Positions 8,334-38,027 of a stretch of DNA of 64,000 bases are shown here, in pieces. Below the pieces are notes generated by a model. It did no database searches and had not been told where the DNA came from. It worked only from the letters and a program-made list of their open reading frames with translations. Position 1 is the first letter of the stretch, and each line of letters begins with the position of its first letter. The translations under genes and the position numbers were made by a program. The stretch is from Patescibacteria group bacterium (GTDB lineage Bacteria > Patescibacteriota > Patescibacteriia > JBDRGY01). The stretch spans positions 8,663 through 72,662 of the forward strand of contig JBDRGY010000013.1 in the NCBI GenBank assembly GCA_043817315.1, given 5' to 3'.

Positions 8334-9851
8334 TTATAAAATCCCGAATACTTTGCGAAAATGAAACCCATAAATTGCAAAACCAATTACTGAAGAGAAG
8401 AGCTGGGGGTGCCTGAATAAAGACCAAAAGAACAGTTTCCAGAAGCCTCCCCTGGACCTATCTTTGATACCCAGAAACCAGATGGATTTAAATATGGCAC
8501 CGGAGAAACCATAATGTAAACGGATATAACGAAAATGAAAATGGGATGACCTCTCTGGTAATTTATTTTTTTCCTTCAAGAATCTCTTAACCCGTTTGTA
8601 ATAAGGCTTGGGAGAGTAAATCCCGCTGATAATTTTTTTATATCCCTGTACCAGGTTTTCATATTTGATTTTAGTAACAAAGTTGGTAGAAAAATCGGTG
8701 TTGTCACCCGTCATATCTTTCAATATCCTGCCTTCTTTGGTAAGACGCTGATAGAGTCTGGTACCCCGAGGGGCATTCAATAATCCGACCATGGCGGTTA
8801 CAATTCCACTTTTCTGGATGAAGTCAATTTGTCTTTGGAATATTGACGAATCATCATTGTCAAATCCCACGATGAATCCTCCGGTCACCTGCAAACCAAA
8901 CTGCTGGATTTTTTGGACTGAGGCGATCAAGTCACGATTCCTGTTTTGAATCTTGCCGCATTCTGCTAAGCTGGCCTCGTTGGGAGTTTCAATACCAACA
9001 AACACCCTGTTAAATCTGGCACGGGCCATCAGACGCATCAGCTCTTCATCATCAGCCAGATTAATTGAGGCTTCGGTGGTAAGAACAAAGGGATTTTTTC
9101 TTTTGGTCATCCAATCAATCATGGCCGGTAAGACATCCTTTTTTAGCTTGGGTTTATTCCCAATGAAATTATCATCAACCATAAATATTCCGCCTCTCCA
9201 GCCTCTTGAATACAGACTATTTAATTCAGTTATCATTTGATCTTTACTCTTGGTCCGTACTCCGCGTCCAAAAAGGGCAGTAATATTACAGAATTCACAG
9301 TTAAAAGGGCAGCCGCGGGAATATTGGAGATTCATCGATAAATATTTTCTCATCTTGATAAGTTCCCAGAGGGGAACCGGCGTTAATCCCAGGTCCGGAT
9401 ATTCCTTGGAGCCATAAATACGTTGAGGACAGCCGTTTTTCAAATCCTCCAAAAAGGGCGGCAGGGTAATCTCCGCTTCATTGAGTATTAGATGATCCAC
9501 ATAGGAAAAATCTTGATACTCGGTTGTAAAGAGGGGGCCACCAGCCACAACCTTGATACCCATTTTCTGACACTTCCTGATTACCTCTTTGGCTGAAGCT
9601 TTTTGAATAGACATGGCACTAATAAAAACCAGATCAGCCCCCATCAGGTCTTTATCCTTTAACTTGGAAACTTTCATATCAATCAGCTTTTTCTCCCACT
9701 CCTTAGGTAGCATGGCGGCTACTGTTAATAAGCCTAAAGGTGGATGAGAGGCCTTTTTGGAGATAAATTTTAAGGCATGCTTAAAACTCCAGAAGGTATC
9801 GGGATACTTCGGGTAAACAAGGACAACTTTGGTATTTGTTTTTCCCCTCAT
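8334..9851 (-). CDS. B12-binding domain radical SAM protein (with DUF4070-like C-terminus)
   Basis: CPFNCEFC is a CxxxCxxC radical SAM motif. There is an N-terminal B12-binding-like domain (VVLVYPKY...LGLLTVAAML). Confidence 0.75.
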   Translation of the reverse strand: MRGKTNTKVVLVYPKYPDTFWSFKHALKFISKKASHPPLGLLTVAAMLPKEWEKKLIDMKVSKLKDKDLMGADLVFISAMSIQKASAKEVIRKCQKMGIKVVAGGPLFTTEYQDFSYVDHLILNEAEITLPPFLEDLKNGCPQRIYGSKEYPDLGLTPVPLWELIKMRKYLSMNLQYSRGCPFNCEFCNITALFGRGVRTKSKDQMITELNSLYSRGWRGGIFMVDDNFIGNKPKLKKDVLPAMIDWMTKRKNPFVLTTEASINLADDEELMRLMARARFNRVFVGIETPNEASLAECGKIQNRNRDLIASVQKIQQFGLQVTGGFIVGFDNDDSSIFQRQIDFIQKSGIVTAMVGLLNAPRGTRLYQRLTKEGRILKDMTGDNTDFSTNFVTKIKYENLVQGYKKIISGIYSPKPYYKRVKRFLKEKNKLPERSSHFHFRYIRLHYGFSGAIFKSIWFLGIKDRSRGGFWKLFFWSLFRHPQLFSSVIGFAIYGFHFRKVFGIL

Positions 9852-9935
9852 ATATGAATTGCTCCGCCATAATGGCGGGATTCCTGAAGATTTTGTTTAA
9901 TTAACGGCTAATTCTATTGTAGCAGATAACAGAAA

Positions 9936-9960
9936 TAATTAAAAATCCCCAAGTATGGGG
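9936..9960 (-). terminator. intrinsic terminator downstream of the tRNA-Trp locus
   Basis: Minus-strand CCCCATACTTGGGG is followed by ATTTTTAATTATTT. Confidence 0.5.
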
Positions 9961-9994
9961 TGTATCCCAGCGAGAGACGCCACCGTTTCGGGTG

Positions 9995-10080
9995 GCAGGG
10001 TTGGAGGGAATCGAACCCCCGTATCAGGTTTTGGACCCCGTCGCTCGCGAGTGACGGGGTGGAGACCCACAACATTTACA
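9995..10080 (-). pseudogene. tRNA-Trp-derived degenerate partial copy (element A)
   Basis: Minus strand ...GGTCTCCACCCCGTCACTCGCGAGCGACGGGGTCCAAAACCTGATACGGGGGTTCGATTCCCTCCAACCCTGCCA carries tRNA-Trp-like anticodon-arm (TCCAAAACC), T-arm (GGGGGTTCGATTCCC) and CCCTGCCA 3' end. No acceptor-stem pairing or cloverleaf is possible, and the D region is replaced by a GC hairpin. Confidence 0.4.
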
Positions 10081-10089
10081 GAAAACTGA

Positions 10090-10165
10090 TGGCAGGGGCG
10101 CTAGGACTTGAACCCAGCCTTGAGGTTTTGGAGACCCCCGTGCTAGCCACTAACACTACGCCCCC
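10090..10165 (-). tRNA. tRNA-Trp (anticodon CCA), CCA 3' end encoded
   Basis: Minus strand GGGGCGTAGTGTTAGTGGCTAGCACGGGGGTCTCCAAAACCTCAAGGCTGGGTTCAAGTCCTAGCGCCCCTGCCA folds as a cloverleaf with anticodon loop CUCCAAA. Confidence 0.8.
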
Positions 10166-10169
10166 ATCA

Positions 10170-10442
10170 TCAGGTTTCTGTTTTTTTAATATTCAAGCTC
10201 TTTGCTATTCGTTTCTTAAGTGCCATATAAACCGATCCGCTTTTCTTTATTCTCTTTTCCCTTATTTTGGAATCTTCTCTGTTTCTATAGGATTCATAGT
10301 AAACTAACTGAACAGGTAGCTTATTCTTAGTTGTAAATACCTTCCCTTTATTATGATCTTTTAGTCTTTGTTTTAAATGATCCGTTCTACCAATATACAG
10401 TTTGCCGTCATTAGCGCTTTTTAATAGATACACATAATACAT
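10170..10442 (-). CDS. GIY-YIG nuclease family protein (UPF0213/YhbQ-like, single URI domain)
   Basis: MYYVYLLKSANDGKLYIGRTDHLKQRLKDHNKG...LVYYESY is a GIY-YIG motif. The protein is 90 aa with a basic tail. Confidence 0.7.
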   Translation of the reverse strand: MYYVYLLKSANDGKLYIGRTDHLKQRLKDHNKGKVFTTKNKLPVQLVYYESYRNREDSKIREKRIKKSGSVYMALKKRIAKSLNIKKTET

Positions 10443-10446
10443 TCAT

Positions 10447-10665
10447 GTGGGATTATTAATTAATCCCCGTCGTTCTCGGTTTTGGACCACGTCAGTCGCG
10501 GAACCCCGTCATCCGGGGATGACAGGGACTGACGTAGTGGAGACCTGCGTTCTACATTGCCAGCCAGAGGCTGGTCCGCCCCGGGCGGAAACTATCCCTA
10601 GGTCGCCTGCAGCGACCGGGATCCCGGCCCCGCGGACAGCGGGGACCAGGGACACCCCCAAAATA
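10447..10665 (-). repeat. GC-rich structured element B, degenerate tRNA-Trp-like copy related to element A
   Basis: About 65 percent GC with many nested hairpins. It shares the blocks AATGT.G, GGTCTCCAC, GACGGGGT, GGTCCAAAACC and ACGRGGG, in the same order, with element A and with the tRNA-Trp anticodon arm. Confidence 0.4.
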
Positions 10666-11754
10666 TTATCGGCTTTTCTTTTTACCTTTAATAAATTCTT
10701 CTGTCAACTGGTGGGCTTCTTCATCGGTATATTGAATAGCCGGTGATTTCATAAAGTAGGCAGAAGGACCGAATAAAGTGCCGGATATCTTTCTGTCCAG
10801 GGCCAATTTTATACAACGAATGGCATCAATAACCACCCCGGCTGAATTGGGTGAATCTTCTACCGACAAACGGCATTCTACATTCATAGGCACATCACCA
10901 AAATGTCGGCTCTCTATTCTTAAGTAACAAATCTTATTATCTTTCTGCCAAGGCACGTAATCGGAAGGTCCGACGTGGATATTCTCATCTTTAATGGACA
11001 ATCCCCTTCTTTCTATCTGGGATTTAACTGCATTGGTTTTTGAAATCTTCTTTGAAGATAGCCTGGCTCTTTCTAACATGTTTAGAAAATCCGTGTTGCC
11101 ACCAATATTCAATTGATAAGTACGGTCAATTGGCATCCCTCTGTCTAAAAATAAATTAGTCAAAGTACGGTGTAGAATTGTGGCTCCCACTTGAGACTTA
11201 ATATCATCCCCTATAATCGGCAGTTTCCTTTGCTTAAACCGACCTTGCCAGTATTTCTCTCGGGCGATAAATACCGGAATACAGTTTACAAAACCACAAC
11301 CGGCATCTAAGACCTGCTCTACATACCACTTAGTGGCATGTTCACTGCCGACTGGCAGATAATTAATGACAACATCGGTTTTGGTTTGCTTTAAAATTTT
11401 GACGATATCATCAGTAGGACCAGGTGCTTTTTTGATTATAACGTACTTGCCTAAACCATCATGAGTCATTCCTCGATGAACTTTAACGCCCAGCTTGGGA
11501 ACTGGGGAGAATTTCTTGGTGTTATTGGGCTTTACCCAAATGGCTTGGCTTAAATCTTTGCCAACTTTGTTGGCGTTGATGTCAAAAGCAGCAGTAAATT
11601 CAATATCCCGGATATGATAACCTCCCAGAGTGACATGCATTAAACCCGGTACCGTATCAGCAGCCTTGGCCTTACGATAGTATTGAACACCTTGAATTAA
11701 AGAAGAAGCACAATTACCCACACCAATTATACCTACTCGAATTTTCTTCTTCAT
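10666..11754 (-). CDS. myo-inositol-1-phosphate (inositol-3-phosphate) synthase, archaeal-type
   Basis: 362 aa. [19 protein letters not shown]-binding start and overall similarity to short-form MIPS. Confidence 0.75.
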
Positions 11755-11773
11755 ATATCCTCCTGATATATTA

Positions 11774-11929
11774 TTATTTGGTCTCTTTATGGGGAGTATG
11801 CTTCTGGCACCATTTACAGAATTTTTTCAATTCTAAACGATTGCGCAGAGTTTTCTTATTTTTCTTGGAAAAATAATTAACCCTTTTGCATTCGGTGCAT
11901 TCCATTTTGATCAGATTGTCCTGTGACAT
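11774..11929 (-). CDS. rpmG: 50S ribosomal protein L33
   Basis: [51 protein letters not shown] has the L33 Cys motifs and RLELKKF/HKE signature. The ORF-track N-terminal extension is rejected. Confidence 0.75.
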
Positions 11930-11984
11930 AGAAATATGTTTAATATTTTTTGGGTAACTCTGGAGCCAAGGAAGCCCCGGATCG

Positions 11985-12075
11985 CAGTCCGGGGGAACCC
12001 CCAACCTGCTGTTTATGCCGCCTTAGGCGGCACCCCGCCAGAGGCGGTAGCAAACATCGCCATAATTACTTACGA
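11985..12075 (-). pseudogene. partial degenerate copy of the tRNA-Thr(UGU) 3' half
   Basis: Minus strand ...CATAAACAGCAGGTTGGGGGTTC-CCCCGGACTGCGATCCGGGG-CTTCCTTGGCT. It has 20 nt identical to the tRNA-Thr anticodon-stem/variable/T-stem region, and the T-loop is replaced by a GC hairpin. Confidence 0.4.
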
Positions 12076-12085
12076 GGTGGCTCAA

Positions 12086-12157
12086 AGCCGAGGAAGGGAA
12101 TCGAACCCCCAACCTGCTGTTTACAAAACAGCTGCTCTACCATTGAGCTACCTCGGC
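12086..12157 (-). tRNA. tRNA-Thr (anticodon UGU)
   Basis: Minus strand GCCGAGGTAGCTCAATGGTAGAGCAGCTGTTTTGTAAACAGCAGGTTGGGGGTTCGATTCCCTTCCTCGGCT has a cloverleaf with anticodon loop UUUGUAA. Confidence 0.85.
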
Positions 12158-12174
12158 AAAACTTGGGGTGGTTG

Positions 12175-12260
12175 TGGTGGGCGGAGTAGGATTCGAACCT
12201 ACGAAGGCAAAAGCCATCTGATTTACAGTCAGACCCAGTTGACCACTTTGGTATCCGCCC
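12175..12260 (-). tRNA. tRNA-Tyr (anticodon GUA), long variable arm, CCA encoded
   Basis: Minus strand GGGCGGATACCAAAGTGGTCAACTGGGTCTGACTGTAAATCAGATGGCTTTTGCCTTCGTAGGTTCGAATCCTACTCCGCCCACCA. Confidence 0.85.
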
Positions 12261-12419
12261 ATATGTATTTTAAATAACCCTATTCATTTTTTTATGAATC
12301 TGATTTATCCCATAGCCCGCTAGACGCAGTAGCGTCTGAGGAGTGAGGGGCACTCATGCGGAGGTTGAAGCGGAAGAAATTTGATTACTGGAACGCAAGC
12401 CGAAGCATGAGATGAGCTG

Positions 12420-12485
12420 AGCCCAGAAGCGGACTCGAACCGCTGACCTACTCCTTACCATGGAGTTGCCTGCCCGCCAAGCGCC
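12420..12485 (-). pseudogene. partial degenerate copy of tRNA-Thr(GGU)
   Basis: gacctactccttaccatggagttgc is identical to the anticodon arm of the adjacent tRNA-Thr(GGU), but the D and T arms are altered and the acceptor cannot pair. Confidence 0.35.
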
Positions 12486-12488
12486 TGG

Positions 12489-12560
12489 AGCCGACGGTCG
12501 GACTTGAACCGACGACCTACTCCTTACCATGGAGTTGCTCTACCACTGAGCTACGTCGGC
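12489..12560 (-). tRNA. tRNA-Thr (anticodon GGU)
   Basis: Minus strand GCCGACGTAGCTCAGTGGTAGAGCAACTCCATGGTAAGGAGTAGGTCGTCGGTTCAAGTCCGACCGTCGGCT. Confidence 0.85.
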
Positions 12561-12638
12561 ACTAGGCGACTGGCAGGCGGGCTCTACCTCAGCCAGGGGC
12601 TGACCCGCCTTTGGCGGGAGCTGAGGTATCTGGGCGTA

Positions 12639-13454
12639 TTATTTTTTGATTTTTAAATCCTTTTCCAATACTTTCACCCTTTCCTCAAATTCAGTTATCT
12701 TCTGGTTGTCGGGATTGACTTCTTTCAATTTATCAAGGCACTCTAAGGCTACCACTTTATCTTTAGTTTCCAAACAGGTGTCTAACATGCAGTCCAATAT
12801 TTTTGGATTGTTCGGTTCAATCTCCAGGGCCTTGGCAAAATTCTTGATGGCCAGTCGTGTATTGTCCTGTCTCAAGGCCAGGAGGCCAAGGTCATGATAC
12901 ACCAAGGCATTGTTGGGATCAATTCGCAGCAGATGTGAAAAAGTCTCGTGAGCAAAGTCAAACTCTTTCATTTCCATATACAGTTCTCCCAGGCGTTCAA
13001 AAGCTTCCAGGTTGTCACTGTCCAGTGATATGATTTCAATATACTTCTTTTCAGCCTCTTTTACCTTCTCTGCTTTCTCTAAATCGTCCGCCTCTTGTAG
13101 TAATTGGCTTACTTTTGTTTTGACCTTGGCTCGATCAGTGCTCTTTTGGGGTGCTTGAATTTTCTGAGTATAATTTTTTTCTAGGGCGATCACCTTACGG
13201 TAGGAACGACGGAATGACTCCCGTATCTTCTGGGTTACTGGTACTGCATATTTAACAACTTGTTTGAAAATATTATCAAGTTTTCTGGTCAACCTTTTTT
13301 CCATTAAGTCTTTTTTAACTTCCTTCTGCAGCTGTTTGGGTACGGCTTGAGTGTTTATTGCAGACAAGGCAGGAAACTTACGCACCACAATAATCACAAT
13401 AATCCCCATCCCCATGATAATGACGCCTAACAATATGTAGTCTAATAGAGTCAT
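12639..13454 (-). CDS. TPR-repeat protein with N-terminal TM anchor
   Basis: TM segment MTLLDYILLGVIIMGMGIIVIIVV, and a C-terminal half with TPR-like repeats (AHETFSHLLRIDPNNALVYHDLGLLAL..AIKNFAKALEIEPNNPKIL). Confidence 0.55.
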   Translation of the reverse strand: MTLLDYILLGVIIMGMGIIVIIVVRKFPALSAINTQAVPKQLQKEVKKDLMEKRLTRKLDNIFKQVVKYAVPVTQKIRESFRRSYRKVIALEKNYTQKIQAPQKSTDRAKVKTKVSQLLQEADDLEKAEKVKEAEKKYIEIISLDSDNLEAFERLGELYMEMKEFDFAHETFSHLLRIDPNNALVYHDLGLLALRQDNTRLAIKNFAKALEIEPNNPKILDCMLDTCLETKDKVVALECLDKLKEVNPDNQKITEFEERVKVLEKDLKIKK

Positions 13455-14281
13455 TGTTTTTTAGATTGAAGTTTTAGACACTGTTCACTACCTGGAATTT
13501 CTACTTCGATATAGGAATTATCCTCAATCCTGACGTCAACAGAATGTTTCAAAATATTCCAAGCTACTACCTCTCCTTTGCCTTGTTTAGTCTTAATAAT
13601 ACTGCCCAACTGCGGCAAATCCTTGCTACAGGTTTTGTATAGTTCTTCTTCGTAGGCCAGGCAACACATTAAACGACCACAAGATCCGGAAATTCTTTCA
13701 CTGCCCCGGTGGGCTACTTGCTGGGCCCGGGCCAAATCAGAAGAAACATTACCCAAATTATCCAAGAACTTACGGCAACACATAGGACGACCGCAGACTC
13801 CAATATCCCCTAGCCTTTTAGTTTCGTCTCGAATTCCAATCTGTTGCAAACGGATTGATTTTTGAAAGATATGCGAAAGATCTTTTACCAAATTACGAAA
13901 GTCCACACGAGAATCAGCCGTAAAGGTAAATACTATTCTGCCGCCATCGAAAGAAAATTCGCAATCTACAAGATTCATCGGCAAATTATGCTTCTTGATC
14001 AGGTGACGGCACTTATCCAGAACCTCTTCTTTCTGTTCGTTGTGCTGCTCCAGCTTGGCCAAATCTTCAGTTGTTACTTTACGAACCACCGAATTGACAG
14101 GCTCTGGTTGGTCATCACCGTCTTTCTTGTCTGTCTCAACGGCTAGCTGGGTTACCTCCCCCAGTTCCAAACCGGAGTCAGCTTTTATTATTACCCGATC
14201 ACCCGTTTTCAAATCAAACCGGCCACCGTCATATAACTGCGGCTGATCCCAAAAGTGCATTCTGACAAAAGCTTTTGACAT
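13451..14281 (-). CDS. PSP1 C-terminal domain protein (RicT/YaaT family)
   Basis: CGRPMCCRKF and CGRLMCCLAYEEELY are the Cys motifs characteristic of YaaT/RicT PSP1 proteins. Confidence 0.65.
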   Translation of the reverse strand: MSKAFVRMHFWDQPQLYDGGRFDLKTGDRVIIKADSGLELGEVTQLAVETDKKDGDDQPEPVNSVVRKVTTEDLAKLEQHNEQKEEVLDKCRHLIKKHNLPMNLVDCEFSFDGGRIVFTFTADSRVDFRNLVKDLSHIFQKSIRLQQIGIRDETKRLGDIGVCGRPMCCRKFLDNLGNVSSDLARAQQVAHRGSERISGSCGRLMCCLAYEEELYKTCSKDLPQLGSIIKTKQGKGEVVAWNILKHSVDVRIEDNSYIEVEIPGSEQCLKLQSKKQ

Positions 14282-18949: not shown

Positions 18950-19025
18950 AAACTTTGCTAACTTCCAATAACGTCCTTTTACATTTTGAGGGTGTAAACA
19001 GAAGCTCAATCGAGAGGAGGCCTGC

Positions 19026-20204
19026 GTGAAAAAGAGGGATGTGGAACAGTATCCTGTTGGCAGCCCGGAGCGCGTAACCGCCGATTTTCTGAGGCGAGCC
19101 AGTCTCGGCAAACGACCAGCCCTTTCTTTCGCCGATGAGCACAATCCGATGGAAGCGGCCCGATTGGCCACTACAGTGCTGTACTGTGGCAACCCTGGTT
19201 TCATCCCCCTGCTCCTTGGAGACATGAAGGGTCTCAACCGCTTCATCCGGGCCAGACACTTGGCTGGCTACCGTTTTCGCAGAAGGCTGCCGGAATTCAT
19301 CATCCTGGGGCGCTTTTGGACTGACACCTGCGGCAACTTCGGTCGCATCCAGCAGACCGACATCCCAGAAGAAGTGATCGTCCAGCTACCCAGCTTGATG
19401 ACTCGGGAAGACTACTCTAGGGTAGCTAAGAGATGCCGGGCACAAGCCGACAAGGATCCGGAGCACACCTACTGGAGCGTTCCTATAGAGAGCAGCGTTC
19501 CTCCAGCTGGCCTGCTCTGTCCGGTTTGCGGCAACGCCTGGAACCTCAGCAACTGCCATGATACCGTGGTCACTCACCGAACCGAATCCATCCCTTTGTC
19601 TGACTTCGTTGGTTGGAGACTGGGTCAGGTCACCGCACATTTCAATCGCACTCCAGATGCAGTGATGCGCATGCAGTCAGATATCATGATCCGCAATGAC
19701 CGTCACATTGACCTGACACCCCATCCCGACTACGATACCCTAGTTCTCAACGAACGAGGCTGGGTGTCCGCCAAGGACGGGATCACGGATTACTACCAGG
19801 TTGAAGAGGGCGATGAAGCTTTCTTTAACATCTGGCAGTTCCGCCATCTGGCCTGTCAACGAGCCTGGCTTCAGGCCAAGGAACGAGAATACTTCCGCAA
19901 GATGTTCAGCGACGCCGGGATACCAGTCAGACGAATGCAGACCATTCCCAACGAGTACGACCCCAGCTATCCTCATTATGCTCCTTGGTTTATGGTCTAC
20001 ACCCCGATTGGCACCTTCAAGATTGGGTGGCGCAAACGGGTGATCAACATCGACTGGACCAAGGCTGAGGGTCAGTACGATGGCCTGTTTGCTGACCAGG
20101 ATGTTACCCAAGGTGCCAACCATGTTCACGCCTGGGGGACCGAGAAGGGCACTGAATACCTGAGTCGTATTGCCGAAGCCTCTCAGGCTGTGCTAGGATC
20201 CTAA
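19026..20204 (+). CDS. hypothetical protein (GC-rich island)
   Basis: GTG start with upstream GAGAGGAGG. 392 aa with a CPVCGNAWNLSNCHD Cys/His cluster and no recognisable family. Confidence 0.45.
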   Translation: MKKRDVEQYPVGSPERVTADFLRRASLGKRPALSFADEHNPMEAARLATTVLYCGNPGFIPLLLGDMKGLNRFIRARHLAGYRFRRRLPEFIILGRFWTDTCGNFGRIQQTDIPEEVIVQLPSLMTREDYSRVAKRCRAQADKDPEHTYWSVPIESSVPPAGLLCPVCGNAWNLSNCHDTVVTHRTESIPLSDFVGWRLGQVTAHFNRTPDAVMRMQSDIMIRNDRHIDLTPHPDYDTLVLNERGWVSAKDGITDYYQVEEGDEAFFNIWQFRHLACQRAWLQAKEREYFRKMFSDAGIPVRRMQTIPNEYDPSYPHYAPWFMVYTPIGTFKIGWRKRVINIDWTKAEGQYDGLFADQDVTQGANHVHAWGTEKGTEYLSRIAEASQAVLGS

Positions 20205-20345
20205 CACTCTCATTAATCACGCGTCCCCGTCCGCAAGGACTCAGGGGCGCTTTTTTTATATTAAAAAAGGTCCTGCACCTACGCTTGCGCGCTTGGTGCA
20301 GGACCTGTCGTTCGAACTCACTCCGTCCCAGAGGACGAGAGGGAG

Positions 20346-21302
20346 TTACTGCTGTGGAACCCTCGAACGATTCCGGGTGTCAAGCCAGGCCGGCTGACCC
20401 CAGTTCTGAGACGCGCTTGCATCCCAGACCATGGTAGCCTTGCCTGACTCAACCGCTTTGAGCCAGACCTCGCGCCGGATCTCCAGCTCCTTGAGCTGGA
20501 CCTCCTTCTTGATCTCGAGATCACGCATCTGGAGGTAGGCTGGATTGGCCGCGACAGCTGCCCCGATCTGATTGATCCGAGCAACTTCCTGGTCAGCGGC
20601 CAACCTTCTGATCTCCGCCTCCCAGATCTCCTGGGGTGCCTTAACGTTGGAGAGCGACATATCGAGCAACTCGATAGGAATGTCGGCCTCAGCGTAGACC
20701 TTCTTGGCCATCGCCCCCAACTCGAGCTCGATCTTCGGACGATTCCTCTGAATGTCTCGATAGTCGACGTATTCCCGGAAAACCTCCCTGGTACCCGCTC
20801 GCAGCTTCATGGCCGCGAAGTGCTCATGAATCATCTCGGTGGTGATTATGAACACTCTGGGGTCATCCGGAACTCGCGGATCCATCGATGACGGAATCGG
20901 GGTGATCGAGTTGATGATCAGGTTGATGTATTCCGGCGTAACCTTGACAATCTCTCGGTAGTAAACGTCGGCCGTTACCTGCGCCACTTCACCGGTCTTC
21001 GGATGTGGGGCACAATCGATCATGTGGTTGACCCGATCGGGCATAAGTTCGGCCGGCAGGTAGCGATCCTTGATCTGGACTGCCGTCACCTCGACCTGGA
21101 CTACGTAGCTGCCCTTGCCACCAGCGCCGAGCTTGCCGATGTCGACCTGACCGGGTTCCAGAATCTGGCCAGTCGGACCCTCAGGGGTGACCTCCATAGC
21201 CACCCAACCCTGCTGAGTGGTAACGTAGTTCGAGCATCCGGCCATGAACATCACGGCCAGCGCGACGACGATCAGAAACAGCTTGTTGAGATTCCTATCC
21301 AT
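20346..21302 (-). CDS. lipoprotein with SPFH/band-7-like domain (tentative)
   Basis: Lipobox FMAGC. The central region has loose SPFH-like blocks (VTADVYYREIV..., ...IELLDMSLSNVKAPQEIWEAEIRRLAADQE) and a coiled-coil C-terminus. Confidence 0.4.
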   Translation of the reverse strand: MDRNLNKLFLIVVALAVMFMAGCSNYVTTQQGWVAMEVTPEGPTGQILEPGQVDIGKLGAGGKGSYVVQVEVTAVQIKDRYLPAELMPDRVNHMIDCAPHPKTGEVAQVTADVYYREIVKVTPEYINLIINSITPIPSSMDPRVPDDPRVFIITTEMIHEHFAAMKLRAGTREVFREYVDYRDIQRNRPKIELELGAMAKKVYAEADIPIELLDMSLSNVKAPQEIWEAEIRRLAADQEVARINQIGAAVAANPAYLQMRDLEIKKEVQLKELEIRREVWLKAVESGKATMVWDASASQNWGQPAWLDTRNRSRVPQQ

Positions 21303-21354
21303 GGGGATAGTTCTCCTTTCCTGACAGGCGAAGATTATCCGATTGGATCATCCT

Positions 21355-21675
21355 CTAGTTGTCACCGATCCGGCGATCCAGAGCTTCTTTCTGCTGCTCG
21401 ATGCCAGTTCGGTCCTGCCCCCTTCGCTCCGACAGATTGACGCTGAGCGAGTTGAACAGGTTGAGCCCCAGCACCAGGGCGATGATCATGATCACCGTCC
21501 AGCGGATGCTGTGAATCCACTTCCTGCTCGCAATCTCGCTACGAGGCATGTTACGCAGCACCAGTCTCGTGACGTACAGAACGATGATGACAGCGATGAT
21601 AGCCGCCACGAACCAGCCTTTGTACATGGGCCAGACTGCGACCCAGCGCTCGGCCAGACTCATCGAGTTAAGCAT
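21355..21675 (-). CDS. small 2-TM membrane protein (possible NfeD-like partner of the SPFH lipoprotein)
   Basis: AGGAGG lies 6 nt before the internal Met (MLNSMSLAERW...). The gene is directly upstream of and co-oriented with the SPFH-like gene. Confidence 0.35.
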   Translation of the reverse strand: MLNSMSLAERWVAVWPMYKGWFVAAIIAVIIVLYVTRLVLRNMPRSEIASRKWIHSIRWTVIMIIALVLGLNLFNSLSVNLSERRGQDRTGIEQQKEALDRRIGDN

Positions 21676-21943
21676 TCCTACCTCCTTCATTCCGGAGAAA
21701 CGTAACAATACTCCACCACTAATCCATTTCACCTCCTGGCCAACCAACGGCCGGTTACTCAAACTGGTTTTATCCCTTCGGATTTTAAAAGTACTATCTA
21801 GCCAATACTTCAGCTAAACAGAATATACTAACATACCTTTCCCGATTTGTCAACCCTGAAAAAAAAGAAAAGGCGCAGTTTTTTGTTTTAATAAATAATT
21901 CCCGCCTAAGGCGGGCAGGTATCTGATTTGACGGAAATGAAGA

Positions 21944-21973
21944 GGCGCCGTTTCGCTTCCGCGAAACGGCGCC
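21944..21973. terminator. strong bidirectional intrinsic terminator
   Basis: GGCGCCGTTTCGC-TTCC-GCGAAACGGCGCC is a perfect 13-bp stem flanked by A/T runs. Confidence 0.5.
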
Positions 21974-22013
21974 TTCGTTGTGAACTCATTCCATCCAGGT
22001 AGGACAGAGCAAG

Positions 22014-22691
22014 TTACTCCGGAAGATCCGGACAGAACTTGATGACTTCGGATACGTCAGCCACTGACTGAATCCAGGGACTATCCAGATCCGAGATGAC
22101 CACGTAGGCCTGACAGTAGTCAAGTCCTGCAAGTTCAGGCTCTACTAAAGCGTACATCAACAGCCACAGAGTAACTGCTGGTTCGTTGCTAACTCCAATG
22201 GTCAGATGGGCATCTTCAAAACCCGAGACCAGGAAACTGCCTACTGCAGTCAGGGCCTGCTGTAAAGGCTGATCTCTGAACAGTTCAGCTGTATTGGCAG
22301 CGGCACAGAGCATCCAGTTGAGACCTCGGCTCTGGTGGCGTTTCCACCAACCATCTCTCTCGATCCAGTGCAGACTGATCATCTGCCTAATTCTCTCATC
22401 CTCATCAACTTGATTAGGATGAAAGAGCTCCCAAGCAGTCAACTCATGCTTGGGCAGACCGCCGTGCCTGAAGACCGGTTTGCCGAAAGTCCCGGTCAGT
22501 CTGGCCTGCAAGTCCAGATAGAGAGGACTAAGGGCCTGGCATTCCTGGATACCTTCTACAGAAAGATTGGTCCAAACCGTAGAAGTTCCCCTTCCTCTGA
22601 CCGGAGTGGCATTACGGATAAACACAGTGCAGTTGTTACCGTTCACTTCGGCAATCAGTTTCATTACCTCTTCCGGTGTCCTGGCAATCAT
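22014..22691 (-). CDS. hypothetical protein (GC-rich island)
   Basis: 225 aa, no recognisable motifs, and GC content matches the 19.0-22.8 kb island. Confidence 0.4.
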   Translation of the reverse strand: MIARTPEEVMKLIAEVNGNNCTVFIRNATPVRGRGTSTVWTNLSVEGIQECQALSPLYLDLQARLTGTFGKPVFRHGGLPKHELTAWELFHPNQVDEDERIRQMISLHWIERDGWWKRHQSRGLNWMLCAAANTAELFRDQPLQQALTAVGSFLVSGFEDAHLTIGVSNEPAVTLWLLMYALVEPELAGLDYCQAYVVISDLDSPWIQSVADVSEVIKFCPDLPE

Positions 22692-22832
22692 TTTGATTAC
22701 CTCCTTTTGCCTGGCACGCCGCAGTGTAAAAGATCAACCCCTTTTCTTAATTCCTTAGCTTATTACTCCTCGATTAGGTTGTCAAATCAAAAAGCTCGCC
22801 ATGGTGACGAGCCTGAAATTGGTAATTAATAA

Positions 22833-23954
22833 TTAGTTGTATTCCACTGTTTCATACCCCATAGGCGCTACTGAAATCCAGGTGTTGCCTACGTTAAATT
22901 CTATCTCTCTGCCGTCAGCGTCGTAAAAAACAGTGCGGTTGGTGCGGCCGCTTTTGCGCCATGTACCCACCAGGCAACTTCCATCCCGACAAATCTTAGC
23001 CTCCCCTTCTCCTTCAATTTCTAAAGTGAGACGTCCCAATTCTCCGAAAGCTACAATCTCAGGAATGACTTGCACTACTACATTTTTTACTCTGATCGCC
23101 TCGTTAGTCTGAGTGTCTTTATGTTCTAAGCCAGAGTTGTACCGTACATAATTATTTTGTTCTTGGTCATATTTATATTCCACCTCCCAGGAAAGACCGG
23201 AAAAAGCAATCTTTATTGATTTCTCTTCGGTTGGTCTGTTATCCAAGGCTGCATCATCTTTAAAGATCCAGGTCTCATAGGAAGGCTCCCGGTCTGCCAA
23301 CTCTTTATCCCGCATTGCTTTGGTGATCAATTCTGAAGATGTATATAAATTATGAGGGGCGTATTTACTGCTATCACGCCAATAATAGGGCCAATCACCG
23401 CCGATTTGATTGATACTGTTTAGTTCCCAATTTCTGACATTAGTTAGGGCTTCCGGACTGCCGCCGCAGTGAGCATAAAGGGCGTCGTATTCAGAAACCC
23501 ATTGGGTGTAATAGGGGCGAGCCGATCGGACCGGGCCAATCTCATCCAATCCATCGGTATCAAAGACGGCCATGAAGCGGGTAGCCAGTCCTTCCACTAA
23601 AGCTTCATAAACAATGGAAGCACCCTGCAAGCCGGATTGGGGCCGGACTGAGGGCAGATTTTCAATCATCACCGCAAAAGGATAAGGGACTTCTTCGTCA
23701 TCATAGAGAATCTGTCCCATAAGGTTACGTCTGATGGTTACAATCTCATCGTCCTGTTCTTGCTCTTTTTCCTCGGAGTATTTGTCAAGCTCTTCGCTAA
23801 AAGCTTCTATTGTATTTGCTGAGGCATAGCCAATAAAAATCCAAGACAGAATTCCGCCTATCAATAAAACACCAACCAAAATTAAAAGCTGGTGTTTAGG
23901 AAGGTATCCTTCAAAAAACTTCTTTTGGTTTTTATTTTTATCTGACTCCCCCAT
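22833..23954 (-). CDS. DUF3048 (YerB-like) domain protein, membrane-anchored
   Basis: N-terminal TM, then ...ENLPSVRPQSGLQGASIVYEALVEGLATRFMAVF...RSARPYY...HNLYTS..., typical of the DUF3048 N- and C-domains. Confidence 0.6.
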   Translation of the reverse strand: MGESDKNKNQKKFFEGYLPKHQLLILVGVLLIGGILSWIFIGYASANTIEAFSEELDKYSEEKEQEQDDEIVTIRRNLMGQILYDDEEVPYPFAVMIENLPSVRPQSGLQGASIVYEALVEGLATRFMAVFDTDGLDEIGPVRSARPYYTQWVSEYDALYAHCGGSPEALTNVRNWELNSINQIGGDWPYYWRDSSKYAPHNLYTSSELITKAMRDKELADREPSYETWIFKDDAALDNRPTEEKSIKIAFSGLSWEVEYKYDQEQNNYVRYNSGLEHKDTQTNEAIRVKNVVVQVIPEIVAFGELGRLTLEIEGEGEAKICRDGSCLVGTWRKSGRTNRTVFYDADGREIEFNVGNTWISVAPMGYETVEYN

Positions 23955-35891: not shown

Positions 35892-36176
35892 CTTGGCTAC
35901 ATATCGGAGGAAAACCAGTATTGGGCTGATCTGTTGTGGGTTTAGACTCGCTATCTGGGACTGACATCCCCGGATGAATGTGCGCACTGGCGAGGGGCGC
36001 TGGACCCACAATGGACTTCATCAAGGGGCTGGCCCCTTCTCCCGATATGGCGGTCTGGGTGCGATCCAGACCAGCCTTTCAAAGCCGAAAGGCCACCTCA
36101 AAAGAGGTGTATTCCTACAGCGCCTGATGTCTCCTTCGCCCCGTGATCCTGTGAGGTCATTGGGGCGATTTTTTAT
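35892..36176 (+). ncRNA. candidate structured RNA, unit 1 (about 285 nt, GC-rich, ends in intrinsic terminator)
   Basis: From the predicted TSS to terminator cgcccc..ggggcg+T7. Shares GGGGCGCTGG..TGGACCCAC blocks with unit 2. No credible ORF. Confidence 0.35.
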
Positions 36177-36205
36177 TTGACAACCAATAGAAGATAATAT
36201 AAAGT
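36177..36205 (+). promoter_or_regulatory. promoter of unit 2: TTGACA-N17-TAAAGT
   Basis: ttgacaaccaatagaagataatataaagt. Confidence 0.5.
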
Positions 36206-36211
36206 CAGACC

Positions 36212-36460
36212 TGCATCCCTCGTTAAACCAGTACTGTGTGAGGGAAATCGGGTTTATTAATACCGGCTGGTCCAGAGCGACACTCTGGGAATAACGCACC
36301 AGCCAGGAACGACGCTGGGCCCGATAGACAACTCCGCAGGGGCGCTGGCCTCTAGCCTGGGATTGTGTGGACCCACGAGGTCCATATCGTTACCCGAAAG
36401 GGATTTTGCGTTACAGCGTCGGCTGTCATTGGCTCTGCTTCGGTAGAGCCAATTTTTTAT
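36212..36460 (+). ncRNA. candidate structured RNA, unit 2 (about 250 nt), paralog of unit 1
   Basis: Contains cgcaggggcgctgg...tgtggacccacga. Ends with ggctctgcttcggtagagcc+T6. Confidence 0.35.
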
Positions 36461-36475
36461 TGGGGAAAACTCCCC

Positions 36476-36504
36476 TTGACAGCCAAAAGCCCAAGGAGTA
36501 AATT
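36476..36504 (+). promoter_or_regulatory. promoter of unit 3: TTGACA-N17-TAAATT
   Basis: ttgacagccaaaagcccaaggagtaaatt. Confidence 0.45.
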
Positions 36505-36510
36505 CATAAC

Positions 36511-36812
36511 TGGTTGTTGTTGTCGTTTGGCAAGTCAGCAAGTAAGTTAGGCGAAAGCCCATGGCTTTCCAGGCCCTCTCGTTTTTATGAGATGGCCAAG
36601 TCCCACGCCCTAGTTGACAGCTAGGCCAAGATCATGACCAGATGGGGCGCTGATACCGGGCCAGACGCGGTCGCCTAAAAGAAACCTGATAAGCCTTACG
36701 GCAGCAGCCGTGGTCGACTATTCGGCCACACGAGACGCGCTAGGATGACGCACCAGGTATCAGTGTCATTCGCCCCTACTGGCTAGCCAGATGGTGTAGG
36801 GGCGATTTTTTT
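36511..36812 (+). ncRNA. candidate structured RNA, unit 3 (about 300 nt)
   Basis: Contains the shared motif gatggggcgctgatacc. Ends with cgcccctac...gtaggggcg+T7. Confidence 0.3.
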
Positions 36813-36822
36813 ACTCCAGGGG

Positions 36823-36851
36823 TTGACAAATCAATAATCTTGTGATAATCT
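36823..36851 (+). promoter_or_regulatory. promoter of unit 4: TTGACA-N17-TAATCT
   Basis: ttgacaaatcaataatcttgtgataatct. It drives the secreted-protein gene. Confidence 0.45.
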
Positions 36852-36921
36852 ATCCTGTCTTCAGGGACAATATTGAAGACGGGTTTTTAAGTACCTTAAC
36901 AGGGGAATCATCCCCAAAACC

Positions 36922-37533
36922 ATGGAGGAGCGTATGCTAAAGTTACGTTCTTTGGTTGTGGTCATTGTTACCTTGGCGGCCCTCCTGCCGCTCTCAGCCC
37001 TGGCGGTGGACTCTGCTCAGTTCCAGACCTGCGCCATTGTACTGGTTCCGGTACAGGGCAACTTCAATGCCTGTGCTATCGGTCAGCTGGTCAATGTACC
37101 CAGTGAAGGTCTGGAGAATTGGTATTACTACGCTGGTCCCGCCTGGATGTCTGATGGCGGAGCCTTGCTGGTGATGCCGCTGGTCGGTCAGATCACCAAT
37201 CGGGGACTGGAAGGTCAGGACGCCACCATCGCCTCACTGTGGAGCATCTGGCAACCCACCGAGAAATTCAAGCTGTTCGTCCAAGGTGACATGTACACCT
37301 ATGGCGACGAAACAGAATATCTCGGCTGGTTGACTACCGACTACTTTCTGACCCCGGATGTTACCTGCGGATTCCACGTCGAGAGGAATGTCGGTGATCT
37401 CTACACCGACACTACCATCGGACCCCACGTTGGAATCACTAAGGGTCCCTGCCGCCTGGAGTTACAGTGGCACGGCTCTATCGAGGGCAAGACCCACGCC
37501 CTCCGCTTGTACACCGAATTCCTGTTCTTCTAG
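36922..37533 (+). CDS. secreted hypothetical protein with C-terminal aromatic residue (possible beta-barrel or phage-derived; GC-rich)
   Basis: Signal peptide MLKLRSLVVVIVTLAALLPLSALA. The likely true start is the ATG at 36934, preceded by GGAGGAG. The protein ends ...RLYTEFLFF and is followed by a terminator ggggag+T7. Confidence 0.45.
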   Translation: MEERMLKLRSLVVVIVTLAALLPLSALAVDSAQFQTCAIVLVPVQGNFNACAIGQLVNVPSEGLENWYYYAGPAWMSDGGALLVMPLVGQITNRGLEGQDATIASLWSIWQPTEKFKLFVQGDMYTYGDETEYLGWLTTDYFLTPDVTCGFHVERNVGDLYTDTTIGPHVGITKGPCRLELQWHGSIEGKTHALRLYTEFLFF

Positions 37534-37595
37534 ACAGGAACACTCCCCAAAGCCATCACGGCCTAGGGGAGTTTTTTTGATTGTGGATATCTGGC

Positions 37596-37624
37596 TTGAC
37601 AGTCAAACCTACCTGTTATAAAGT
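37596..37624 (+). promoter_or_regulatory. promoter of unit 5: TTGACA-N17-TAAAGT
   Basis: ttgacagtcaaacctacctgttataaagt. Confidence 0.5.
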
Positions 37625-37630
37625 CATAAT

Positions 37631-38027
37631 CACCGTGATCAGCCAAGTTACGATGCGGATGAGGGCCTGTGGGCACAAAGAGAGACTGCCTAGTCAAGAC
37701 AGAACAGGGGTGCACCAGTCTAAAGACGGCGCAAAAACCCGCACGGCACCGCATGGAGGGCTAGCTGGAGCTCAAGTCACGGTCAGGTGGGCCATGACGA
37801 CGACGGAAAAAAGATGCCTACCTAGAGTCAGGCACGGATGGCACTCTCGGGATTATCCTGTAGAAGTCTGGGGTCCGTCCCAGCATGCAGGGCAAGAACC
37901 TGCTCTACGGGCGACATTCCCGAGCGAGGATGCCTAAAACCGGCATGACTAGCTCGAAAGAGCAAACACGAAGGCGCCGCATCTGTCTATCCCTGTGCAG
38001 GCCTGCACAGGGATATTTTTTTTACTC
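37631..38027 (+). ncRNA. candidate structured RNA, unit 5 (about 390 nt, GC-rich), ending in a strong terminator just upstream of miaB
   Basis: Terminator ccctgtgcaggcctgcacaggg+T8. No SD-associated ORF. I looked for RNase P, tmRNA and SRP hallmarks and did not find them. Confidence 0.3.

Follow-up and report, generated by a model that had tools for sequence, protein, structure and literature searches.

Apparent nesting and hairpin splitting of tRNA genes in a Patescibacteria group bacterium and its relatives

In fungal mitochondria, the GIY-YIG element of Allomyces atp6 brings a replacement gene segment with it and the displaced fragment of the resident gene remains as a pseudogene; the double-hairpin elements of Allomyces and the GC clusters of yeast mitochondria are mobile GC-rich hairpins in an AT-rich genome. 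T4 SegB is a GIY-YIG homing endonuclease encoded in a tRNA cluster, and its recognition site includes the T-psi-C motif (PMC2330249). The rRNA genes of the candidate phyla radiation (CPR) carry many insertions at the tips and bases of stem-loops, often short, devoid of open reading frames (ORFs) and of unknown type; some of them encode GIY-YIG proteins and are neither group I nor group II introns, the survey covering rRNA genes only (PMC11270868). Disrupted tRNA genes of archaea and Cyanidioschyzon include genes with multiple or non-canonical introns, split genes and permuted genes (PMC4090602, PMC3978253, PMC3728597). Here we describe tRNA genes that appear to have been split, nested and replaced in a 64,000-nucleotide stretch of a Patescibacteria group bacterium (contig JBDRGY010000013.1 of assembly GCA_043817315.1, positions 8,663 to 72,662; below, the window), which is part of a metagenome-assembled genome, and compare them with loci from related Patescibacteria that we label with L-numbers (L081, L083, L087 and so on). 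Our searches of open-access papers yielded no account of bacterial tRNA genes that are nested or split by hairpins.

T4 SegB is the nearest characterised system. As there, a GIY-YIG gene lies among tRNA genes, is co-inherited with the neighbouring tRNAs and is present or absent between close relatives. Unlike SegB, the protein found here is a catalytic domain of 90 aa only and belongs to a cellular Patescibacteria genome; furthermore, split tRNA halves are left with palindromes or hairpins at the junction, and most of the nests contain no ORF. With the CPR rRNA insertions, our case shares the phylum and the placement of inserts at the tips or bases of the stem-loops of structural RNAs, and it goes beyond them in that a replacement gene copy is nested in, or lies beside, the disrupted one. 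The disrupted tRNA genes of archaea and Cyanidioschyzon similarly show inserts in the D, anticodon and T loops, similar inserts at the same position in different tRNAs, and halves brought together by GC-rich helices. They differ in that the junctions inspected here lack the bulge-helix-bulge (BHB) motif, the host is a bacterium, excision would not restore several of the outer genes, a broken gene is always accompanied by an intact isoacceptor, and the insert can be an entire tRNA. In contrast to the mitochondrial elements, the targets are tRNA genes of 75 nt, apparently replaced whole and nested repeatedly in a bacterial host. An intact tRNA with a nearby direct repeat of part of it also recalls the att sites of integrative elements, whereas here neither an integrase nor an island is found, 5' halves are duplicated, and the repeats lie tens of nucleotides apart.

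Positions are given for the whole window, and all tRNA-locus features described here are on its minus strand. ARAGORN identified four tRNA genes, tRNA-Trp (10165-10090), tRNA-Thr(UGU) (12157-12086), tRNA-Tyr (12260-12175) and tRNA-Thr(GGU) (12560-12486), each supported by Rfam with 46.6-73.5 bits. An earlier note on this DNA, written from the letters alone, had proposed that each tRNA of the Thr-Tyr-Thr cluster is followed by a degenerate copy of its own 3' half, altered by GC-rich hairpins, and that a further tRNA-like fragment sits in the leader of the cluster. We found that the working tRNA-Thr(GGU) sits within an older, split tRNA-Thr(GGU) gene. The 5' part of this outer gene (12635-12581), recognised by its acceptor pairing and by the same start in relatives, consists of GCCCAGA (12635-12629), TA, CCTCA, GCTC, a two-hairpin module of 28 nt in the D loop (12617-12590), which recurs in other such broken outer genes, or shells, and AGGTAGAGC (12589-12581). 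Its 3' part (12469-12420) holds the anticodon arm, the variable region, the T arm, TCTGGGC and the discriminator. The acceptor strands GCCCAGA and TCTGGGC (12427-12421) pair perfectly at 7 of 7 positions, and 12469-12419 is identical at all 51 positions to nt 24-74 of the intact tRNA-Thr(GGU) of L087 (E 1e-25). The arm pairing and the match to L087 thus join the leader fragment and the supposed degenerate copy as two halves of one older tRNA-Thr(GGU). The leader fragment of the note is therefore real. The resemblance of the downstream copy to the adjoining gene also held (37 of 40 positions between 12469-12430 and nt 23-62 of the neighbouring tRNA-Thr(GGU), E 5e-11), while its description as that gene's own degenerate copy did not: it is the 3' two-thirds of a different allele. 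The GCCCAGATA start also heads the intact L087 tRNA and the shells of L081 and L094, and a homologous fragment, GCCGAGGTAGAGC-CCGCCT, precedes the intact Thr(GGU) gene in L087. When the inserts were deleted in silico, ARAGORN called a perfect tRNA-Thr(ggt), with the caveat that the D-arm pieces may derive from another shell.

The inner tRNA-Thr(GGU) is intact, encodes its CCA (12560-12486; Rfam 72.2 bits) and is presumably functional. It is bordered by a 5' flank, CCGCCTGCCAGTCGCCTAGT (12580-12561), and by a complementary 3' flank, GGCGCTTGGCGGGCAG (12485-12470), which together with the G preceding the 5' flank form a long helix; the predicted energy of this leader-trailer duplex is -33.9 kcal/mol, in comparison with a mean of -8.0 for mismatched controls. 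ARAGORN also calls a "second tRNA-Thr(GGU)" at 12490-12419. The call combines the CCA of the inner tRNA with the 3' flank and the 3' part of the outer gene; it reaches 25.2 bits in Rfam against a gathering score of 29 and covers model positions 10-63 only, and annotation pipelines are likely to report it as a genuine tRNA. Outside the split tRNA, its 3' end is followed by a trailer hairpin element (12419-12300) without an Rfam match. Elements of this kind are about 110-120 nt long, begin directly after tRNA 3' ends (CCA followed by CGG.TCA...) and occur several to a locus, as in L081 (4973-5093, 5178-5300 and 6065-6190), L083 (2038-2165 and 2689-2815), L087 (1752-1880) and L094 (1329-1450). 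An RNAalifold alignment of eight copies predicts a long hairpin of 24 pairs, of which 19 show compensatory changes; GTGCCCCTCTCCCC and a second hairpin come after it.

The intact tRNA-Thr(UGU) (12157-12086; Rfam 73.5 bits) is followed by a tRNA-like unit at 12083-11961 that we call EleA. Its 5' portion, GAGCCACC...ATGTTTG (12083-12051), still begins like an acceptor and retains the anticodon stem-loop on its 5' side, the D arm being decayed and AT-rich; a homologous stretch is found at L087 1169-1204, and the GCCACCC start is that of the intact Thr(UGU) genes of L083 and L154. A two-hairpin module of 35 nt, CTACCGCCTCTGGCGGGGTGCCGCCTAAGGCGGCA (12050-12016), then interrupts the anticodon loop at TG^TAAA. 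It gives way to an exact repeat of nt 35-55 of tRNA-Thr(UGU) (12015-11995; 21 of 21 positions, E 8e-7 against the 64-kb window), spanning the 3' side of the anticodon loop, the stem, the variable region and the 5' T stem, after which the hairpin CCCCGGACTGCGATCCGGGG (11994-11975), conserved in L083/L084 and L087/L088, takes the place of the T loop. The unit ends in CTTCCTTGGCT plus CCA (11974-11961), resembling the acceptor 3' strand CTTCCTCGGCT, with which it agrees at 10 of 11 positions. EleA thus confirms the earlier observation of a copy after tRNA-Thr(UGU) with a substituted T loop, and as a whole it reads as a full-length tRNA-like relic of four parts. Its make-up is chimeric, and removal of the inserts in silico did not restore a tRNA. 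Including the hairpins, EleA is about 90% conserved between the window and L087, while the neighbouring protein is only 55% identical. A tmRNA (transfer-messenger RNA), in one or two pieces, was rejected as an identity for EleA, as ARAGORN found none and the unit is too short. The suspected overlap of EleA with an N-terminal extension of rpmG is correct: the TTG-started ORF 12004-11774 runs into EleA and is an artefact. The gene for ribosomal protein L33 (11929-11774; 51 aa, Pfam L33 at residues 6-51) begins with the ATG at 11929, in agreement with its orthologues, which start MSQDNLIK.

The statement that each tRNA has such a copy was too broad. For the intact tRNA-Tyr(GUA) (12260-12175; ARAGORN, Rfam), no significant partial copy exists in the 64-kb window, the best match being 10 nt with an E-value of 3.7.

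A second locus centres on tRNA-Trp, for which the note had reported a similar copy and missed a further one upstream. In L083, tRNA-Trp of the orthologous type is intact; in the window it is present as two overlapping, insert-laden parts, TrpA and TrpB. TrpA (10659-10449) runs from the 5' acceptor to the T arm and contains three inserts: a three-hairpin module after position 7-8 (10651-10595), a two-hairpin module in the D loop (10589-10558) and a 51-nt hairpin in the anticodon loop (10537-10487). It matches nt 18-35 of the intact L083 tRNA-Trp at 18 of 18 positions (E 5e-6), has modules that recur elsewhere, ends in a T-arm-like hairpin with an AT-rich loop and has no match in Rfam. TrpB (10068-9993) consists of GGGTCTCCA, a 24-nt palindrome, CCCCGTCACTCGCGAGCGACGGGG (10059-10036), and the 3' half of tRNA-Trp up to the CCA; 10035-9993 is identical to nt 32-74 of the L083 gene at 42 of 43 positions (E 1.6e-18). 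With the inserts deleted in silico, TrpA and TrpB together give a tRNA-Trp that ARAGORN can call. Between the two parts lie an intact GIY-YIG ORF of 90 aa (10442-10170) and an intact tRNA-Trp(CCA) of another sequence type, beginning GGGGGCG (10165-10090; ARAGORN, Rfam 46.6 bits), which resembles the tRNA-Trp beside the GIY-YIG gene of L096. The stop codon of the ORF is 4 nt ahead of this tRNA. The predicted nuclease is a stand-alone protein of the UPF0213 type (Pfam PF01541, E 2e-15) with its catalytic domain at residues 1-68 of 90, the closest solved structures being the stand-alone UPF0213 proteins 1zg2 and 1ywl of the PDB; a model of group I intron endonucleases scored 16 bits on it against a cut-off of 56. 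In three lineages (window 10449-10471, minus strand; L094 959-981; L097 about 1126-1148), the GIY-YIG start codon is immediately preceded by a hairpin derived from a T arm, GACGGGGATTAATTAATAATCCC, whose loop is enlarged and AT-rich and in L094 has the sequence AATATAATTAAT. This hairpin may be a promoter, with a -10-like TATAAT, or a leader signal of the ORF.

The GC-rich hairpins are not mere substitutions, as the note had described them; they are discrete insert modules that recur, at matching loop positions, from one tRNA species and genome to another. The anticodon-loop module, C[TC]ACCGCC-N4-GGCGGGGTGCCGCC-N3-GGCGGCA, occupies TG^TAAA in the Thr(UGU)-like units of the window (EleA) and L087 and lies at the same site within a tRNA-Tyr 5' half in L092. 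The two-hairpin module of the D loop is shared by the Thr and Trp shells of the window and by L085, L095 and L154, the three-hairpin module of the 7/8 junction by the Trp shell of the window and the Thr(UGU) 5' fragments of L081 and L083, and the T-loop hairpin by the window, L083 and L087. A palindrome family, ACCCCGYC-NN-TCGCGA-NN-GRCGGGGT, is represented by 17 distinct copies, situated after GGTCTCC in Trp anticodon loops, in D loops (L147, L175) and after the 3' CTCCA of Thr(GGU) (L081, L087, L094). Double-sided changes affect 7 of its 11 pairs, a covariation score reached by none of 500 shuffles, and palindromes of the TCGCGA type with arms of at least 9 bp were absent from 627 kb of unrelated control loci. 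As expected of miniature palindromic or hairpin mobile elements of the REP, MITE or GC-cluster kind, we thus see a short GC-rich palindrome family at many sites with conserved structure, accompanied by three further module families. Two loci show larger arrangements of the palindrome. In L144 (1254-1362), TCGCGA-type arms, CCCCGCCCCCTCT and AGAGGGGGCGGGG, enclose 83 nt of non-coding cargo that replaces the centre; the palindrome centre may therefore receive insertions, or the arms may serve as terminal inverted repeats. In L134 (1-300 and 555-620), two tandem 113-nt repeats, each with a palindrome-disrupted tRNA-Trp copy, lie upstream of an intact tRNA-Trp, and a third palindrome-bearing 3' fragment follows the GIY-YIG ORF.

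To compare the Thr-Tyr-Thr cluster among relatives, we used syntenic loci of the order rpsB-tsf-PSP1-TPR-tRNAs-rpmG, found through TPR homologues with 55-70% identity. The same nested architecture is general in related Patescibacteria, up to three shells deep. In L083, a whole tRNA-Thr(UGU) of the GCCACCC type interrupts a Thr(UGU) of the GCCGAGG type precisely at nt 34/35; the 3' half of this outer gene has the same T-loop hairpin as the window, and a second nest is found in Thr(GGU). The same Thr(UGU) site is occupied in L144, with perfect flanks of 13 bp and directly downstream of a GIY-YIG ORF. L087 has EleA as in the window and three concentric tRNA-Tyr shells around an intact gene with a perfect 17-bp flanking helix; in L081 and L094 the same inner Thr(GGU) is enclosed by a GCCCAGA shell that has decayed; in L154, Thr(GGU) is preceded by a 5' fragment, and Tyr is followed by a 3' shell split in the T loop. 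The clusters of L085 and L089 are compact, with few or no shells. Independent assemblies (L081/L082, L083/L084, L087/L088) are concordant, which excludes mis-assembly. The junctions show overlaps of 0-4 nt (CC/TCCA, GC, CA or none); no transposase was identified, GIY-YIG being the sole associated protein. Duplicated 5' halves or fragments occur in the window (12635-12581 and 10659-10449) as well as in L081, L083, L085, L094, L101, L145 and L158, so 5' halves are involved equally and the earlier restriction to 3' halves falls, as does the idea of duplicates of the neighbouring gene, the fragments being displaced halves of older tRNA genes. The gene order of the cluster is mosaic: Thr(GGU)-Tyr-Thr(UGU) is found in the window, L089/L090, L091 and L153/L154, and Thr(UGU)-Tyr-Thr(GGU) in L081, L083, L085 and L087, which are nearest to the window in TPR identity.

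The tRNA-fragment pattern is far beyond chance. Among the Patescibacteria loci, exact partial tRNA copies of at least 13 nt outside annotated tRNAs numbered 29 on the same strand and 2 on the opposite strand (about 21 and 1 after duplicate assemblies were removed by hand; binomial p about 5e-6), and nearly all of them lay within 20-430 nt of the parent tRNA. The note was right in regarding the pattern as systematic, derived from tRNAs and connected with insertion events. Strong leader-trailer helices were found only around nested inner tRNAs, 8 of 62 tRNAs falling below the first percentile of mismatched controls, and a universal leader-trailer pairing of the tRNAs of this clade was rejected on these grounds.

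The association of GIY-YIG genes with tRNA genes is strong. All three of the close homologues of the window gene that we examined (66-81% identity) adjoin tRNA-Trp. For a wider count, we took 80 metagenomic homologue loci and the three close homologues: a same-strand tRNA starts between -5 and +40 nt after the stop codon in 15 of 93 GIY-YIG ORFs with room downstream, in comparison with 1 of 429 other ORFs of the same loci, and 9 of those 15 tRNAs are Trp. In the recurrent layout, a tRNA copy (the 5' half or the whole) interrupted by a palindrome or module is followed by the ORF and then by an intact tRNA; in the window, L095, L128 and L134 a palindrome-bearing 3' half follows as well. In L091/L092 the order is Tyr 5' half, module, GIY-YIG and intact Tyr. 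L094 and L081, close relatives with collinear flanks, form a pair of filled and empty sites, a single one: directly upstream of tRNA-Trp, L094 has 375 additional nt comprising a tRNA-Trp 5' copy, a palindrome, a degenerate T arm and the GIY-YIG gene. A second polymorphism of this kind concerns a hairpin module: the near-identical contigs of L091 (3934-3985) and L092 (2866-2880) differ by a block of about 40 nt of extra GC-rich hairpin inside the anticodon-loop module.

We consider that the fragments are probably scars of repeated insertion of small selfish cassettes into the loops of tRNA genes, an intact copy keeping the function. What we observe in this respect is the nested anatomy, the exact junctions, the recurrence of modules, one pair of empty and filled sites and the association of ORF and tRNA. 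Resident tRNA genes would be split by the precise insertion of a small cassette at a loop of the cloverleaf, that is, at the 7/8 junction or in the D, anticodon or T loop. The cassette could be a complete tRNA gene of the same anticodon with complementary flanks, a GC-rich hairpin or palindrome module, or a hairpin module with a small GIY-YIG nuclease ORF and a tRNA. As an intact tRNA is always next to or inside the broken one, the cell would lose nothing, and the broken shell would be free to decay and to gather more hairpin modules, repeated rounds giving nested shells. The cassettes would be mobile: the GIY-YIG protein, or another structure-specific nuclease, may break structures formed by the tRNA gene or the palindrome, and repair from a cassette-bearing copy may spread the cassette, as in intron-less homing. 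The ORF-less units of the Thr-Tyr-Thr cluster would then be relics or non-autonomous relatives of the ORF-bearing cassettes.

Several observations sit uneasily with selfish insertion. The outer Thr(GGU) pieces have no substitutions relative to the functional gene of a distant relative; a suspiciously pristine state of this kind is unexpected for an old pseudogene and would need recent acquisition, gene conversion or function. The 90-aa protein is a catalytic domain without the DNA-binding domain of characterised GIY-YIG homing enzymes, and its nuclease activity and target are putative. No ORF is present in the Thr-Tyr-Thr cluster of the window, which has one GIY-YIG gene in all. Selfish insertion does not account for immunity against re-cleavage, since in several loci the intact tRNA that is regenerated has the very sequence of the presumed target. 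The similarity of modules across distant hosts fits mobility and fits equally well selection for RNA function. The flanks of the tRNA units are not conserved in the manner of transposon ends and co-vary as do helices of RNA or single-stranded DNA, and transposon-like conserved terminal repeats were rejected for these units, the flank sequences being different. The palindrome pattern is absent from the viral contigs searched, and with no match there its carriage by phages was rejected.

Local rearrangement without mobility, through breaks induced by palindromes or hairpins, replication slippage, tandem duplication and gene conversion in a highly transcribed tRNA operon, with the hairpins as by-products or stabilisers, is in our judgement unlikely, if worth keeping in mind. 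It would account for the upstream 5' halves that in many loci are identical to the adjoining intact tRNA (32-36 nt), for the tandem palindrome-disrupted Trp copies of L134 and for the reshuffled order of the clusters among relatives. However, nested pairs are often of different alleles (GCCCAGA and GCCGACG, GCCGAGG and GCCACCC, GGGGGTG and GGGGGCG), and the same modules of 28-57 nt are found at equivalent sites of different tRNA species in hosts whose neighbouring proteins are about 40-55% identical. Furthermore, the 5' half breaks off at the very nucleotide from which the 3' half continues, a mark of insertion that independent deletions would not leave.

The outer genes could instead be functional, as multi-insert or split bacterial tRNA genes or as tRNA-like scaffold RNAs, their inserts being cut from one precursor: RNase P/Z or RNase III would cut at the flanking helices, and the halves would be ligated or would scaffold the processing of the inner tRNA. 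We regard this as decidedly improbable. The inserts are at loop positions only; perfect cloverleaves can be rebuilt from the Thr(GGU) and Trp pieces of the window, which match the functional genes of relatives almost throughout; the long helices that carry the inner tRNAs differ from lineage to lineage by compensatory changes; and EleA is conserved well beyond the neighbouring protein. Canonical tRNAs are restored from the outer Thr(GGU) and from TrpA plus TrpB of the window, but not from EleA or from the outer genes of L081 and L083; EleA and the outer Thr(UGU) of L083 lack a T loop, and no single excision would repair them. The L081 and L094 shells of the Thr(GGU) nest are clearly decayed, their T arm having been replaced and their anticodon loop changed. 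Shells also vary strongly among close relatives and are absent in L085 and L089, and the constant presence of an intact isoacceptor makes the outer gene dispensable. No BHB was seen at the junctions inspected by eye in the window, L083 and L087, no dedicated BHB program search having been made; the L083 junction is a continuous 11-bp helix with a single 3-nt bulge. BHB introns were rejected on this geometry, the junctions being continuous helices or having a single bulge and no 3-4-3 arrangement, and matches to group I introns were none. A special form of the idea strikes us as very unlikely, namely bacterial "genes in pieces" akin to the split or multi-intron tRNA systems of archaea but without a BHB motif: one precursor would yield the inner tRNA and also a second functional tRNA, whose halves would be ligated or would pair once proteins had helped to excise the hairpin modules and the inner tRNA. 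More generally, a role of the RNA in processing or as a decoy, which the note had suggested, is conceivable, but the shells turn over rapidly from one close relative to the next, which speaks against a conserved function.

The 3' halves of tRNA genes are classic integration sites. Scars of att sites, left where tRNA-targeting elements duplicated the 3' part of a tRNA and were later lost, were among the explanations offered by the note, and tRNA-Thr(UGU) with EleA, an intact gene and a 21-nt exact direct repeat from the anticodon loop, does resemble an attL/attR pair. Our results leave this highly improbable. The ORF list shows no integrase beside the loci (7-16 kb); the repeats are separated by 4-110 nt, by one tRNA, or by the 273-nt GIY-YIG ORF and a tRNA, and never by a multi-kb island; 5' halves, D loops and 7/8 positions are affected too; the short overlaps of the junctions contain no att core; and the arrangement recurs in many lineages without island remnants.

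Chance similarity, ordinary terminators or metagenome mis-assembly, for which GC-rich hairpins expected near RNA operons and the metagenomic origin of the contig might speak, can hardly be entertained in view of E-values between 1e-25 and 8e-7, the strand bias, the complementary flanks as a biological signal, and identical architectures in independent assemblies and samples and also on contigs of 0.4-0.7 Mb. The terminator alternative, which the note itself had raised, was rejected on hairpin counts: terminator-like hairpins with a T run numbered one in 2.9 kb against 3.5 expected, the sole one in the region being situated downstream of TrpB (9960-9947).

Homologues of the neighbouring TPR protein, together with a GIY-YIG protein in NCBI that is identical to that of the window, assign the contig to Patescibacteria/CPR. 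The tRNA loci are islands of about 60% G+C in a genome of about 43%, and although they make up only about 1.5 kb, they contain 10 of the 22 perfect GC-rich hairpins of the window. At permissive thresholds, Rfam found only tRNAs there, with no family for the shells or the GC-rich TrpA region, and no intron, tmRNA or Y-RNA-like family was among the matches in the window and relatives. Group I introns had no Rfam match at E up to 10 in 9000-14000 and none at the gathering score across the whole window or in four relatives; the inserts, 20-110 nt long, contain no group I ribozyme core that Rfam detects. Folding of single sequences gave z-scores of just -1.7 to -1.9 for the elements, which are uninformative by themselves. 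A promoter scan yielded 4 matches against 4.7 expected from shuffles, not above expectation; one of them, TGGAAA-18-AATAAT, ends 3 nt upstream of the 5' end of the outer Thr(GGU) gene, which we take as a hint at most.

Beyond the tRNA loci, a lone CCGCC-ATAAT-GGCGG hairpin in the style of the tRNA shells (9864-9878) lies just upstream of a gene for a B12-binding radical SAM protein (9851-8334). The two tRNA loci are separated by a gene for myo-inositol-1-phosphate synthase (11754-10666, minus strand). The encoded ino1 protein is highly conserved, and its closest relatives are from non-Patescibacteria metagenome-assembled genomes (Aminicenantes, Zixibacteria, Chloroflexi; up to 79% aa identity), which suggests a horizontal transfer; only N- and C-terminal remnants of the gene are left in L081 and L094, and the best ino1 matches in genome contigs have no tRNAs nearby. 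Two long stretches of about 58-61% G+C, 19000-23600 and 35900-38000, apparently coding, stand out from the 43% of the window and may be acquired DNA.

For annotation, the loci explain a false call of tRNA finders (12490-12419) and the extension of called ORFs into shells, as in rpmG, and GC-rich "unknown RNAs" in these genomes may be tRNA shells. If the insertion of selfish cassettes is true, the CPR habit of insertions in rRNA genes would extend to tRNA genes, and the association with tRNA genes would give the widespread stand-alone GIY-YIG proteins of the UPF0213 type their first biological context. Essential tRNA genes of 75 nt would then have been invaded, split and replaced repeatedly by tiny selfish cassettes in streamlined bacteria, which would offer a live bacterial model for tRNA genes "in pieces", long debated for the introns and split tRNAs of archaea.

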